The notes below the pieces were generated by a model. The model did no database searches and had not been told where the DNA came from. It saw only the letters and a program-made list of their open reading frames with translations. The position numbers were made by a program, and so were the translations under genes. Source: a virus (taxonomy: Duplodnaviria; Heunggongvirae; Uroviricota; Caudoviricetes). From it: 9,208 nucleotides of DNA. The stretch lies in the IMG/VR virus record IMGVR_UViG_2526164634_000013, positions 1 to 9,208 of that record; one strand, written 5' to 3'. Positions 3,540 through 9,201 of the stretch are shown in pieces (positions within the stretch are counted from its first letter, which is position 1; each line of letters opens with the position of its first letter).

Positions 3540-3899
3540 ATGCTCATAGATTTGGTTTTACCTTACCCGCCGACGGTGAACACTTACTGGCGACGCCGTG
3601 GCAGCACATATTTTATCTCGGAGGAGGGAAAGCGTTATCGCCGTGATGTGGCGCTTATTGTTCGCCAGCAGCAACTGAAATTAAACCTGTCCGGAAGGCC
3701 GGCAATAGAAATTATTGCAGAGCCACCGGATAAGCGCCGTCGTGACCTGGACAATATCCTGAAGGCACCACTGGATGTACTGACGCATGCGGGGCTGCTC
3801 ATAGACGACGAGCAGTTTGATGAAATTAATATTGTGCGCGGTCAGCTTGTTCCTGGTGGGCGGTTGGGGATAAAAATCACAGAACTGGAGTATGCATGA
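3540..3899 (+). CDS. rusA: RusA-family Holliday junction resolvase
   Basis: 119-aa product with PPxxNxYWRRRG…RRRDLDN…DDxQ…GGRL, matching the RusA catalytic acidic-residue pattern. SD AGAGG upstream. The stop overlaps the next start (ATGA at 3896-3899). Confidence 0.88.
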   Translation: MLIDLVLPYPPTVNTYWRRRGSTYFISEEGKRYRRDVALIVRQQQLKLNLSGRPAIEIIAEPPDKRRRDLDNILKAPLDVLTHAGLLIDDEQFDEINIVRGQLVPGGRLGIKITELEYA

Positions 3900-4585
3900 A
3901 TAACCAGTATTTACAGTTTGTTCGTGAGCAACTCATGATTGCCACCGCCGATTTGAGTGGATCAACAAAAGGGCAGCTTGAGGCCTGGCAGGAGAATGCC
4001 ATGTTTGATACAGGGCGTTACAGGCGTAAAAAAATCCGGTACCGCGATGAAGTGACTGGAAAAATGATAACGCGGGATAATCCACCAATCCCGGGAAAGC
4101 AATCGCTGGCGAAGGGGGCGTCAATTCCTCTCGTCAGTCCGGTTGAGTTTTTGACATCATCGTGGCGGCGGGCTGTTCTGTCTCTTGAAGAACATCATAA
4201 AGCCTGGTTGTTGTGGTGTTACAGCGGGAGTATTTGTTGGGAATATCAGATCGCGATAACGCAGTGGGTGTGGAATGAATTTAAAACCCGGTACGGCACC
4301 AGAAAAATTGCAGGGAAAACGCAGGAGCGCGCGAAGAAGTTGATCTGGCTGGCGGCACAGGATGTCAGAGGATGGATTACCGGGTGTGAGGTCTACCAGA
4401 GACAGGAGCTTGCCAGACTGTGTGGAGTTAAGCCTGATAACTGGAGCCATAATTATGCGAACTACTGGCGTGAGATGTGCGATATTTTTAAGAGTCTCGA
4501 TAGAGAATCTGTGATTTGCACCGTGAAAATAAGAGCGCAACAAAAAGCGACTTTTTCACGACGAGATATTGCAAAAGTCAATTAA
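3896..4585 (+). CDS. Putative late-gene antiterminator Q (long Q-like family, QuuQ/YdfT-type)
   Basis: 229-aa ORF translationally coupled to rusA, with GGAG 5 nt upstream. It is the last gene before a promoter-like AT-rich stretch and a strong terminator, which is the canonical Q position in lambdoid phages. The family is inferred mainly from synteny; I cannot confirm by motif. Confidence 0.55.
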   Translation: MNNQYLQFVREQLMIATADLSGSTKGQLEAWQENAMFDTGRYRRKKIRYRDEVTGKMITRDNPPIPGKQSLAKGASIPLVSPVEFLTSSWRRAVLSLEEHHKAWLLWCYSGSICWEYQIAITQWVWNEFKTRYGTRKIAGKTQERAKKLIWLAAQDVRGWITGCEVYQRQELARLCGVKPDNWSHNYANYWREMCDIFKSLDRESVICTVKIRAQQKATFSRRDIAKVN

Positions 4586-4644
4586 ATAGCGTACGTTTCG
4601 TATAAATCTGATATTTTGCCGATTTTGTACGCGATGGCAAAGTA

Positions 4645-4675
4645 AGAAAAAAACTGCCGTCAGGCGGTTTTTTTT
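4645..4675 (+). terminator. Strong intrinsic terminator downstream of Q (tR'-like), flanked by A-run and T-run
   Basis: AGAAAAAAA, then stem CTGCC-GTCA-GGCGG (one G-U pair), then TTTTTTTT (4668-4675). It is about 60 nt downstream of a TATAAAT box (4601-4607). Confidence 0.7.
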
Positions 4676-4797
4676 ATGCCCAAAATCGCGTCAGTACAGT
4701 AAACACGCTGGTGGTTGCGAATACGGGTCTTTCAGCTTGCTGGCTTTTTCGACAAGAGTTATTGGTATGTCACGTTAACCGGAAAAAGGAAAAAGAC

Positions 4798-4995
4798 ATG
4801 CTAAAACAGCAGGATATGACAGAAACCGCCAGAGTGGTGTTTAATGAATTAAGCGTTACCGAACCGGCGACAGTCGGGGAGATAGCGCAGAATACTTACC
4901 TTTCACGCGAACGCTGCCAGTTAATACTGACTCAGCTGGTTATGGCGGGTCTGGCAGACTATCAGTTCGGTTGTTACAGACGCCTTCCGCAGTGA
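4798..4995 (+). CDS. Small helix-turn-helix DNA-binding protein (65 aa)
   Basis: ATG at 4798 with AGGA 8-11 nt upstream. The segment ATVGEIAQNTYLSRERCQLILTQLVMAGLA has an HTH-like pattern. The track start at 4711 is an in-frame extension lacking an SD. Confidence 0.55.
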   Translation: MLKQQDMTETARVVFNELSVTEPATVGEIAQNTYLSRERCQLILTQLVMAGLADYQFGCYRRLPQ

Positions 4996-5006
4996 AGGCT
5001 TTTTTA
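4982..5006 (+). terminator. Intrinsic terminator overlapping the stop codon of the HTH gene
   Basis: Stem GCCTTC (4982-4987) / GAAGGC (4994-4999) with loop CGCAGT, followed by TTTTTTATTT. Confidence 0.6.
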
Positions 5007-5023
5007 TTTGTGGTAAATGGGCG

Positions 5024-5052
5024 GCTGGTGGGTGTTAGGGGCACCCACCAGC
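5024..5052 (+). repeat. Perfect 11-bp-stem hairpin (GCTGGTGGGTG / CACCCACCAGC, 7-nt loop) in the methyltransferase leader
   Basis: Exact inverted repeat with no following U-tract. A second 7-bp-stem hairpin lies at 5095-5113 (CTGCTTT-GCGCA-AAAGCAG). Confidence 0.6.
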
Positions 5053-5145
5053 CATCTGCTCATGCGTTGGGTTCACAAGCAAACCTCAGGCCCACTGCTT
5101 TGCGCAAAAGCAGAATGAGCCTATCAGAGACAGGCTTAATGATCC

Positions 5146-6195
5146 ATGCTTAATACTGTAAAAATATCCAGTTGTGAGTTAATCAACGCCGACTGCCTGG
5201 AATTTATCCGGTCGTTACCCGAAAATTCTGTTGACCTGATAGTCACGGACCCGCCGTACTTTAAAGTGAAGCCTGAGGGCTGGGATAACCAGTGGAAGGG
5301 CGACGATGATTACCTGAAATGGCTGGACCAGTGTCTGGCGCAGTTCTGGCGGGTGCTGAAACCTGCCGGAAGTCTTTACCTGTTCTGTGGTCATCGCCTG
5401 GCATCTGATATCGAAATCATGATGCGTGAACGCTTCAGTGTGCTGAACCATATTATCTGGGCGAAGCCGTCCGGACGCTGGAACGGGTGCAACAAGGAAA
5501 GCCTGCGGGCGTATTTCCCCGCCACAGAGCGCATTCTGTTCGCGGAACATTATCAGGGGCCGTATCGCCCGAAAGATGCCGGGTATGAGGCGAAGGGCAG
5601 GGCACTGAAACAGCATGTGATGGCCCCGCTGATTTCTTACTTTCGTGATGCGCGCGCTGCCCTGGGGATAACGGCAAAACAGATAGTGGATGCCACAGGA
5701 AAGAAAAACATGGTGTCACACTGGTTCAGTGCCAGTCAGTGGCAGCTACCGAACGAAAGCGATTATCTGAAATTACAGTCGCTGTTTGCCCGGGTGGCAG
5801 AAGAGAAACATCAGCGGGGAGAACTGGAAAAGTCCCATTACCAACTGGTCAGCACATACAGTGAGCTGAACCGGCAGTATACGGAACTGCAGAGTGAATA
5901 TAAGCATCTGCGGCGGTATTTTGGCGTGACGGCGCAGGTGCCGTACACGGATGTGTGGACGCATAAACCGGTGCAGTACTATCCAGGGAAACATCCGTGC
6001 GAAAAACCGGCAGAAATGCTGCAGCAGATAATCAGCGCAAGTAGTCGTCCTGGTGATCTGGTTGCGGATTTTTTCATGGGGTCGGGTTCAACGGTAAAAG
6101 CGGCGATGGCACTGGGGCGTCGTGCGATTGGCGTTGAACTGGAGACCGGACGTTTTGAGCAGACAGTCAGGGAAGTTCAGGATTTAATCGTTTGA
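5146..6195 (+). CDS. Orphan DNA methyltransferase, beta class (N6-adenine/N4-cytosine family, PF01555-like)
   Basis: 349-aa product with catalytic DPPY (residues 35-38) preceding the AdoMet-binding motif HPCEKP…GDLVADFFMGSGST (residues 283-316). That motif order defines the beta class, and DPPY rather than SPPY favours N6-adenine. No obvious SD before the ATG. No restriction endonuclease ORF in the window. Confidence 0.88.
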   Translation: MLNTVKISSCELINADCLEFIRSLPENSVDLIVTDPPYFKVKPEGWDNQWKGDDDYLKWLDQCLAQFWRVLKPAGSLYLFCGHRLASDIEIMMRERFSVLNHIIWAKPSGRWNGCNKESLRAYFPATERILFAEHYQGPYRPKDAGYEAKGRALKQHVMAPLISYFRDARAALGITAKQIVDATGKKNMVSHWFSASQWQLPNESDYLKLQSLFARVAEEKHQRGELEKSHYQLVSTYSELNRQYTELQSEYKHLRRYFGVTAQVPYTDVWTHKPVQYYPGKHPCEKPAEMLQQIISASSRPGDLVADFFMGSGSTVKAAMALGRRAIGVELETGRFEQTVREVQDLIV

Positions 6196-6508: not shown

Positions 6509-6533
6509 GGCTCGCTTTTGCGGGCCTTTTTTT
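6509..6533 (+). terminator. Intrinsic terminator immediately after the tRNA cluster
   Basis: Stem GGCTCGC / GCGGGCC (one U-G pair) with loop TTTT, followed by TTTTTTT. Confidence 0.7.
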
Positions 6534-6730
6534 AAATGTCTCACAATTCAGACGGTTGACAGTTGTCTGTTTTGCGGGGAGTTTGTTAAAAGAAACTGGC
6601 ATGGTGAATCCCCCTGTGCGGAGGGGCAATCAGCGAGTAGGTATATGGGATAATCGCGGATTCAGGTGCTGGTACTGAATTCACCGGGAGGCACCCGGCA
6701 CCATGCAATGGCACATAGCGCCACTCTCCA

Positions 6731-6755
6731 GCCCCTCTCCGGAGGGGCTTTCTTA
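6731..6755 (+). terminator. GC-rich hairpin with T-rich tail (terminator-like) in the tRNA-to-esterase interval
   Basis: Stem GCCCCTC / GAGGGGC with loop TCCG, followed by TTTCTTA. Shares the core CGGAGGGGC with a second hairpin at 6611-6626. Confidence 0.4.
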
Positions 6756-6760
6756 TGGAC

Positions 6761-6788: not shown

Positions 6789-6982
6789 CGGCAAGGAATA
6801 AACATCAAAACGTGAAGTAATATTTCAGCTGGCGAATAATATCCGACAGTAATCACTCTGCGCAATAGCGCGGCCTTTTTCGTATTGCGGACTGTTGTCT
6901 CTCTTCTGCCATTGTCCTGTAACTTCCGGACTTCAGCCCGCTCCTCATTTTACTCACAATATTATCCCGGCCGGGAGGATTC

Positions 6983-8836: not shown

Positions 8837-8921
8837 AAAGTGAGCCAGTCAAGTGGAAGGTATCGTTAAACTCACCGGTAGTGTCAGTGGGTCGTCTGAG
8901 ACGCCTGCATGAGTTATCAGA

Positions 8922-8950
8922 GCCATCAGTACTTAACTGGTGGCTTTTTT
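8922..8950 (+). terminator. Intrinsic terminator between the esterase gene and the holin gene
   Basis: Stem GCCATCAG / CTGGTGGC (one G-U pair) with 7-nt loop TACTTAA, followed by TTTTTTATT. Confidence 0.6.
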
Positions 8951-8985
8951 ATTGTTGTCAGCTTCCGGATAACGGGAGACGGGGT

Positions 8986-9201
8986 ATGTACCAGATGGAA
9001 AAAATCACAACAGGTGTGTCATACACCACGTCAGCGGTGGGAACGGGCTACTGGTTCCTGCAGTTGCTGGACAGGGTTTCCCCGTCTCAGTGGGCGGCAA
9101 TAGGCGTGCTGGGGAGTCTGCTGTTTGGGCTGCTGACATATCTGACTAACCTGTATTTCAAAATCAGAGAGGACCGTCGTAAGGCGGCGCGGGGAGAGTA
9201 A
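8986..9201 (+). CDS. S: S21-like pinholin (class II holin) with dual-start motif
   Basis: 71-aa product [71 protein letters not shown]. From memory it is near-identical over the C-terminal two thirds to the phage 21 holin (…[15 protein letters not shown]…[22 protein letters not shown]). Two TM segments and Met1/Met4 dual starts. The track ORF from 8881 is an unsupported N-terminal extension. A new ATG at 9206 starts the next gene. Confidence 0.85.

Follow-up and report, generated by a model that had tools for sequence, protein, structure and literature searches.

Gene content of the prophage segment

The stretch of DNA analyzed here, which is 9,208 nt long and is referred to as the window, is a 9.2-kb portion of a lambdoid prophage of E. 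coli, and the genes listed below are all encoded on the plus strand. In their order along the window these are:

Plus strand: DUF551 protein, the first gene of the series
1709-2034: hok/sok module (Rfam sok, 121 bits), upstream of the DUF968-RusA-Q block
Plus strand: DUF968 protein, between hok/sok and RusA
3540-3899, plus strand: RusA
3896-4585, plus strand: Q antiterminator of 229 aa, Q82 family (PF06323)
4798-4995, plus strand: reading frame of 65 aa with a weak TrmB-like match and a terminator of its own (4982-4999)
Plus strand: DNA methylase, after the 65-aa reading frame
Plus strand: three tRNAs, after the methylase
6570-6760: small RNA STnc100 (strong match, 139 bits), between the tRNA cluster and the esterase gene
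Plus strand: sialate-esterase-like protein of 617 aa, before the holin
8881-9201, plus strand: P21-type holin (PF04971, E=2.6e-32)

A hok/sok-type toxin-antitoxin module is likewise placed before the DUF968-RusA-Q block in the Qin prophage of E. coli K-12. From 4798 onward all large reading frames lie on the plus strand with the P21-type holin as the last one, and these co-oriented late genes, including the holin 4.3 kb downstream of the module described below, are located beyond several further terminator-like sites, which a simple scan placed at 4982-4999, 6509-6526, 6730-6749, 6858-6873, and 8919-8947. Terminator-like sites are enriched over the window as a whole (19 observed vs. 9.0 ± 3.5 expected). 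Shiga-toxin phages carry stx at the place equivalent to the interval between tRNA cluster and esterase gene, which holds STnc100 here; toxin genes are absent from the prophage in the window, and there is no stx. The stretch from Q to the leader is 99.5% identical to the chromosome of E. coli strain ST648, the closest genome, in which the same prophage contains an IS3 insertion and pseudogenes. It was matched by 52 E. coli records at an identity of at least 99%; any part of it was matched in 1806 of 5426 complete E. coli genomes, and at least 80% of its length in 376.

The Q protein and its family

The 229-aa protein had been regarded in an earlier note on this DNA as a Q-family antiterminator, and this assignment is borne out by its membership in PF06323 (E=8.6e-83, 277.8 bits vs. 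a cut-off of 25, 217 of 220 profile positions covered) and by its relation to phage 82 Q (X92588), to which it is equal in length and 66% identical over 229 aa in a gapless alignment. PF06323 is the sole Pfam hit, and the families of the lambda-type and phage-21-type Q proteins, PF03589 and PF06530, gave no match. PF06323 corresponds to the Q82 family; there are three Q families, which are alike in function but not in sequence (PMC9388147). As of 2022, no experimental structure of full-length 82Q had been reported (PMC9371919), and a PDB sequence search with the 229-aa protein matched neither a Q homologue nor a solved Q structure. The Q gene has an intact, full-length reading frame with its stop codon at 4583-4585, which confirms that the module starts immediately downstream of Q, as had been proposed.

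Identities computed by segment revealed that Q is a mosaic with a break near 4365. Over residues 1-156 the identity is 91-94% to the Q protein of prophage PPompW and 76-79% to that of phage 82, while the 73 residues 157-229 are 41% identical to the proteins of 82, 434, and PPompW and 60% identical to the Q protein of Enterobacter phage CobraSix; the same C-terminal motifs are visible by eye in the Q protein of Klebsiella phage 2 LV-2017. This C-terminal type travels with the promoter spacer AAGTCAATTAAAT, where 82 and 434 have AACTGGATTAAAA. As the C-terminal domain is only 41% identical and the spacer is changed in step with it, the DNA specificity may differ from that of Q82, and judged by sequence the C-terminal type together with the spacer could represent a DNA-recognition class of its own, the second in the Q82 family.

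Architecture and conservation of the region downstream of Q

The region 4569-4675, which overlaps the end of Q, is very probably the module by which late transcription is controlled in a lambdoid prophage that has a Q protein of the phage 82 type. It comprises the following features, all on the plus strand:

4569-4574: -35 hexamer TTGCAA, inside the last Q codons (..ATT GCA AAA GTC AAT TAA)
4573-4608 (about -31 to +5): zone expected for the Q-binding element, putative
4592-4597: -10 hexamer TACGTT, 17 bp after the -35 hexamer, keeping T1, A2, and T6
4601-4607: TATAAAT box of the earlier note, spanning the predicted start from -3 to +4 and distinct from the conserved -10
4604 (± 1 nt): predicted start, +1 = A4604, 7 nt past the -10 hexamer, by homology to phage 82
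4604-4675: predicted terminated leader RNA of about 70-72 nt, derived from start and terminator and made without Q
4609-4620: predicted sigma70-dependent pause element with TG at +6 and +7, TATTTT at +9 to +14, and GCC at +15 to +17
4612-4644: leader hairpin, 4612-4621 pairing with 4635-4644 (arms UAUUUUGCCG and UGGCAAAGUA)
4628-4629 (+25 U, +26 A): predicted promoter-proximal pause sites and Q loading point, transferred from phage 82 pR'
4647-4675: intrinsic, tR'-like terminator with A7 (4647-4653), stem CTGCC/GGCGG, loop GTCA, and T8 (4668-4675)

Conservation was assessed in a close set and in a cross-species scan. The close set was composed of 80 viral contigs, whose Q proteins are 81-99% identical, together with 434, PPompW, ST648, and an 82-type prophage, and it yielded 33 distinct promoter-leader sequences. 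The cross-species scan, with one genome per species, yielded 58 loci in about 50 species of enterobacteria, in which Q identity goes down to 50%. Across species the layout begins with TTGCAA, 14 nt ahead of the stop of Q, followed by 17 bp, a hexamer, 11 nt, and TGATATnnT. The strict pattern is fitted by 51 of the 58 loci, and five of the seven non-fitting loci (two of which share one sequence) differ from it in one or two bases; of the remaining two, one carries the motif downstream of an early in-frame Q stop and in the other the printed stretch is free of the motif. The same promoter and pause layout recurs in Enterobacter phage CobraSix and Klebsiella phage 2 LV-2017. The earlier proposal of a late promoter followed by a tR'-like terminator after Q is thereby upheld, as a Q82-family Q is followed by a conserved layout of promoter, pause element, and terminator.

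The promoter and the predicted start

The earlier note had assumed a weak, GTCAAT-like -35; the conserved -35 is instead TTGCAA at 4569-4574. This hexamer is invariant in all 33 close variants and was found in 62 of the 73 variants of a wider set, and in almost every one of the 58 cross-species loci its first base lies 14 nt ahead of the Q stop. Within it, the GCA codon never varies in its third base, which suggests a constraint beyond coding. The hexamer 17 bp downstream is more variable and reads TACATT in 12, TATGTT in nine, TACGTT in six, TATATT in four, and TATACT and TAAATT in one each of the 33 close variants, and T1, A2, and T6 are invariant in all of them. These three positions of the -10 hexamer are the ones weighing most for sigma70. 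The homologous -10 is TATATT in the prophage with the phage 82 Q gene and in PPompW and TATACT in 434, and TATATT is also the commonest form across species.

The phage 82 record X92588 stops at the Q stop codon, and the phage 82 promoter was read instead from a prophage of E. coli strain DAM that agrees with phage 82 in the order of the genes upstream of Q and has a Q gene of 100% DNA identity to that of the phage. Downstream of Q this prophage reads TTGCAA-AACTGGATTAAAAAGCA-TATATT-TCATAT-AAATCTGATATTTTGCCAATGTTGTA; the form TTGCAA-17-TATATT-TCATAT-AAATCTGATATTTTGCCAATGTTGT is consistent with the published landmarks of 82 pR'. Aligned to it base for base, the window has TTGCAA, the spacer AAGTCAATTAAATAGCG, TACGTT, TCGTAT, and then AAATCTGATATTTTGCCGATTTTGT from 4604. 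For 82 pR' it was reported that the pause-inducing element is closer to TATAAT than that of lambda and contains an extended -10 motif, that GCC at +15-17 is required for the pause, and that the pause occurs at +25/+26 with U as base +25 (PMC5001585). All four published landmarks fit if +1 is the first A of AAATCTG, 7 nt past TATATT, the sole start that, read on the prophage sequence, places GCC at +15-17 and U at +25. In the window the equivalent base is A4604, 7 nt after TACGTT, where transcription would start by homology to phage 82. The predicted sigma70 promoter thus corresponds in position to 82 pR' and overlaps the end of Q with its -35. The comparison with a mapped late promoter, that of phage 82, which the earlier note had named, supports the module in its landmarks but moves the start from 4610-4620 to A4604, as the promoter had been placed nine bases too far downstream.

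The earlier placement relied on the TATAAAT box, which is indeed found at 4601-4607. According to this reading, TATAAA(T) would be the -10 and GTCAAT or TCAATT a poor -35, and transcripts beginning at about 4613 would run to the same terminator. TATAAA matches the -10 consensus at five of six positions, TACGTT at three of six, and the upstream hexamer is degraded in the window allele relative to TATATT of the phage 82 type; the two candidate promoters come to 7/12 each in total and neither passed the scan. The conserved promoter, 9 bp upstream, is nevertheless found in every relative with T1, A2, and T6 of its -10 retained throughout, whereas the box is kept as TATAAAT in 15 of the 33 close variants and is replaced by TGTAAAT, TGCAAAT, CGTAAAT, or TGTAAAC in the other 18, all with G at position 2. 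Most relatives carry TGTAAAT at this place, and A at position 2 is absent from most cross-species variants (it is kept in 6 of 73 unique variants of the wider set, with about five spurious pattern matches counted in). The 82-type prophage also has TATAAAT, though its start, as set by the published GCC at +15-17, falls within the box. The box itself is no more frequent than chance: TATAAAT occurs once in the window, 0.72 copies were expected in shuffled sequences, and at least one copy was present in 97 of 200 shuffles. GTCAAT (4577-4582, 18 bp upstream of the box) matches TTGACA at only two of six positions, and there is no TG just upstream of the box for an extended -10. Furthermore, a start at about 4613 would lie inside the pause element and would leave Q without a paused complex to load on. 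It is thus very unlikely that the TATAAAT box serves as the -10.

For the conserved promoter upstream of the box, TTGCAA-17-TACGTT (7/12 overall), the low match of TACGTT to the consensus and the failure of a simple promoter scan of the window to pick it up indicate that it may be weaker than 82 pR'. Taken further, the degraded -10 could mean that the module is a relic, with a nearly silent late promoter and a non-functional switch, and the IS3 insertion and the pseudogenes in the same prophage of ST648 would suit such a decay. This is argued against by the intact and full-length Q frame, by the recurrence of the TACGTT allele in six distinct sequence variants and 17 viral contigs and of the Q-to-leader stretch in the 52 E. 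coli records, and by the integrity of the critical -10 positions, the pause element, and the terminator. Moreover, TATGTT and TACATT are common in relatives, and non-consensus middle positions are therefore normal for a Q82-type -10. A relic is accordingly regarded as unlikely, and a working late promoter as the preferred reading.

The cis-elements of 82 pR', i.e., the Q-binding element and the pause element, are contained in -31 to +30 (PMC4914094), and the Q-binding element of the window would by this analogy be expected at about 4573-4608. Literature searches for the sequence of the leader or of the pause element returned nothing relevant. E. coli K-12 was considered as a source of start-site data and was discarded, since the Q protein of its Qin prophage (ydfT) is of the lambda family (PF03589) and is followed by a lambda-type pause element (AACGATGGG). 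Two side observations concern the end of Q. The simple scan gave a promoter-like site on the minus strand (TTGCCA-16-CAAAAT, 4613-4640) that is directed back into Q. The annotation of the phage 434 record places a CII box (TTGC-N6-TTGC) and the antisense promoter paQ where the homologous Q gene ends; at the place of this CII box the window has TTGCAATATCTCGT (4561-4574), which is one mismatch away from the box.

Predicted pause element and leader RNA

The earlier note overlooked the pause element itself, which is the defining part of a Q-utilization site. In the window TGaTATTTT is located at 4609-4617, GCC at 4618-4620, and T4628 at +25. The element TGATATTTTGCC is present in 29 of the 33 close variants, and almost every one of the 58 cross-species loci has TGATATnnT at a constant distance of 11 nt past the -10. 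Judged by its sequence, the predicted element fits the published 82 pR' with its extended -10-like element, GCC at +15-17, and U at +25.

The leader (4604-4676) folds with -25.9 kcal/mol (z = -4.65), and none of 200 shuffled sequences reached an equal fold. The hairpin at 4612-4644 is contained in both the minimum-energy and the centroid fold. Its standing as a conserved element is uncertain: among the close relatives zero compensatory changes were found and several pairs are broken, RNAalifold on 16 diverse leaders returned no consensus structure, and 75% of the shuffled controls pair too. In relatives with long leaders (L004 and L089-L145) bases +12 to +19 can pair near +30 to +38, with arms that differ by clade (UUUGCC/GGCAAA, UGCCA/UGGCA, GUCG/CGAC, and UGCUGCC/GGCGGCA) and in a register that differs between clades, and short-leader relatives of the 434 type are without this hairpin.

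An Rfam search over 4586-4680 gave no family at gathering score. The sub-threshold match to isrK (RF01394; 4595-4674, plus strand) reaches 18.5 bits vs. a gathering score of 50, while the true isrK of Gifsy-1 scores 79.3 bits, and membership of the leader in the IsrK family was rejected. Directly ahead of the U8 terminator lies an A/G-rich stretch (AGUAAGAAAAAA). Such a stretch before a U-run terminator is common in Hfq-binding RNAs. That the leader of about 70 nt, produced constitutively in lysogens, acts in trans as a regulatory small RNA, comparable to StxS or IsrK, or that the Q protein represents a second specificity of the Q82 family, is a tentative idea with a low chance of being right. 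If true, the second specificity would fall in the one Q family that is without a solved structure.

The terminator and the boundary of the module

The stem of the terminator is formed by 4654-4658 and 4663-4667; the simple scan gave the register 4656-4668. Among 23 distinct related leaders, six of 13 pairs show compensatory changes on both sides, and 92.5% of the cells pair vs. 43-61% if the partners are slid by 1-3 columns. Covariation and pairing above the slid control show that the terminator is more than a chance hairpin. The earlier note had described it as strong and bidirectional-looking, of which the hairpin with its A7 and T8 flanks, supported by covariation, stands, while a role on the minus strand is argued against by the comparison. 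The T-run of the plus strand is kept in nearly all relatives and the A-run, which would be needed for termination on the minus strand, is often lost. In addition, G-U pairs outnumber A-C cells in the terminator (36 vs. 10). These patterns argue that selection is acting on the plus-strand terminator.

The same data bear on the possibility that the hairpin mainly serves transcripts other than the late leader, either as the end of the early operon to which Q belongs or in two directions together with a minus-strand RNA of the STnc370 type running from 4716 to 4641. An STnc370 (RF02064) match does exist on the minus strand at 4641-4716 (E=9e-6 in a 351-nt search), and A7 and T8 in the window allele would permit termination both ways; yet its 46.7 bits stay below the gathering score of 54 and derive mostly from the terminator itself, i.e., from A-run, hairpin, and U-run. 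Upstream of 4716 the minus strand gave no promoter-like site, and its fold is ordinary (z = -1.8). Many relatives have AAGCAAAACCC or AAGCAAGGCCC in place of the A-run, by which the U-tract of the minus strand is lost and the T-run of the plus strand is kept, and the excess G-U pairs are valid on the plus strand only. Ending early-operon transcripts is compatible with the late switch as the main explanation. Absence of a promoter, ordinary fold, loss of the A-run, and the G-U excess led to the rejection of a minus-strand small RNA as the main role, and overall it is highly unlikely that the hairpin primarily serves other transcripts. The terminator of the late leader remains the reading followed here.

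Homology to phages with other Q families starts at about 4650, the 5' edge of the terminator. From there on, Stx2a and Stx2d phages and phiP27 are 91-94% identical to the window, through the 65-aa reading frame and the methylase (window 4650-5150, locus L086 1190-1700). The only Stx phage checked, Stx2_EH2201, encodes a 126-aa Q protein of the Q21 family (PF06530) followed by the homologous terminator AAATCCGCCGTCAGGCGGGTTTTTTATGCC, and the K-12 Qin prophage has a closely related terminator after its lambda-family Q. From these alignments, the block of Q, promoter, and pause element is exchanged as a unit up to the terminator, with the recombination joint at the 5' edge of the terminator. An exchange as a unit fits the expectation that each Q travels with its own recognition site.

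Proposed mechanism and implications

The Q family, the conserved spacing of promoter, pause element, and terminator, and the covariation of the terminator were read directly here, while start, pause, and Q loading are transferred from phage 82 by homology. On this basis, sigma70 RNA polymerase would start at about A4604 from TTGCAA-17-TACGTT, and sigma70, still bound to the polymerase, would recognize TGaTATTTT at +6 to +14. GCC at +15-17 would help to hold the polymerase, resulting in a pause at about +25/+26 (4628-4629). Without Q, the polymerase would escape from the pause and terminate at the hairpin and U8 of 4647-4675, releasing the leader of about 70 nt. Q supplied by the early operon would bind DNA just upstream of the paused complex and join the polymerase, and the Q-modified polymerase would then resist the terminator at 4647-4675 and the later terminators and proceed into the genes for methylase, tRNAs, esterase, and holin.

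The module is thus presented as an ordinary late-gene switch of a lambda-like prophage, which leaves the understanding of antitermination unchanged. Its value lies in a correct annotation: promoter, start, and pause are predicted to the base, for use in transcript mapping and switch engineering, in a module that is common among E. coli prophages. The comparison also provides a compact signature of Q82-type late promoters, i.e., TTGCAA 14 nt before the Q stop, 17 bp, TAnnTT, 11 nt, and TGATATnnT, which is left unmarked by annotation pipelines.

Comparison with known systems

The closest known system is pR' of phage 82, with which the window shares the Q family and length, the TTGCAA -35, and the 17-bp spacing. 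The first 17 transcribed bases (AAATCTGATATTTTGCC) are identical to those of the phage 82 type, including the pause element and GCC, and both have U at +25. The two differ in the -10 (TACGTT in the window vs. TATATT in the phage 82 type), in the spacer (AAGTCAATTAAATAGCG vs. AACTGGATTAAAAAGCA), and in the C-terminal third of Q, which is 41% identical to that of phage 82 Q. The terminator of the window lies at about +70 and has another sequence, whereas the first terminator-like hairpins of the 82-type prophage are found further downstream.

The lambda system composed of pR', 6S RNA, and tR' follows the same logic, with a promoter after Q, a sigma70-dependent pause at a -10-like element among the first transcribed bases, a short RNA that is terminated when Q is absent, and the late genes behind the terminator. 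Lambda Q (PF03589), in contrast, is unrelated in sequence to the Q protein of the window, and lambda polymerase pauses at +16/17 with the element AACGAT at +1 to +6, in contrast to +25 in the 82 type. The lambda leader is much longer than that of the window and ends at +193 in the numbering of PMC4914094.

In Shiga-toxin phages, the short transcript from pR' to tR', StxS, is produced constitutively in lysogens and is a by-product of antitermination control; a distance of 258 nt separates pR' from tR', and processing yields a 74-nt small RNA that binds Hfq (PMC7547250). Homology of the window to Stx2 phages sets in at the terminator (about 4650) and extends over the late region behind it. The Stx2 phage checked carries a Q21-family Q, while the window encodes a Q82-family Q and no stx. 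Further parallels are the lambda 6S RNA and the short late-promoter RNAs of phages 21, phi80, 82, and P22.

The antQ-isrK region of Gifsy-1 in Salmonella likewise combines a Q82-family gene with a promoter (TTGACA-18-TATATT) that overlaps the Q stop and with a terminated RNA of about 77 nt, read-through of which yields a downstream mRNA; isrK occupies the same place after antQ as the leader does in the window. The Gifsy-1 leader is unrelated in sequence to that of the window, the downstream genes differ, and IsrK has a demonstrated regulatory role. In Gifsy-1 (L087 2175-2287) IsrK starts 7 nt past TATATT, and CAAAAT is located at about +8 to +13, the place of the 82-type pause element. Judged from this arrangement, IsrK looks like a leader RNA made from the late promoter of a Q82-type module and ended at its terminator.
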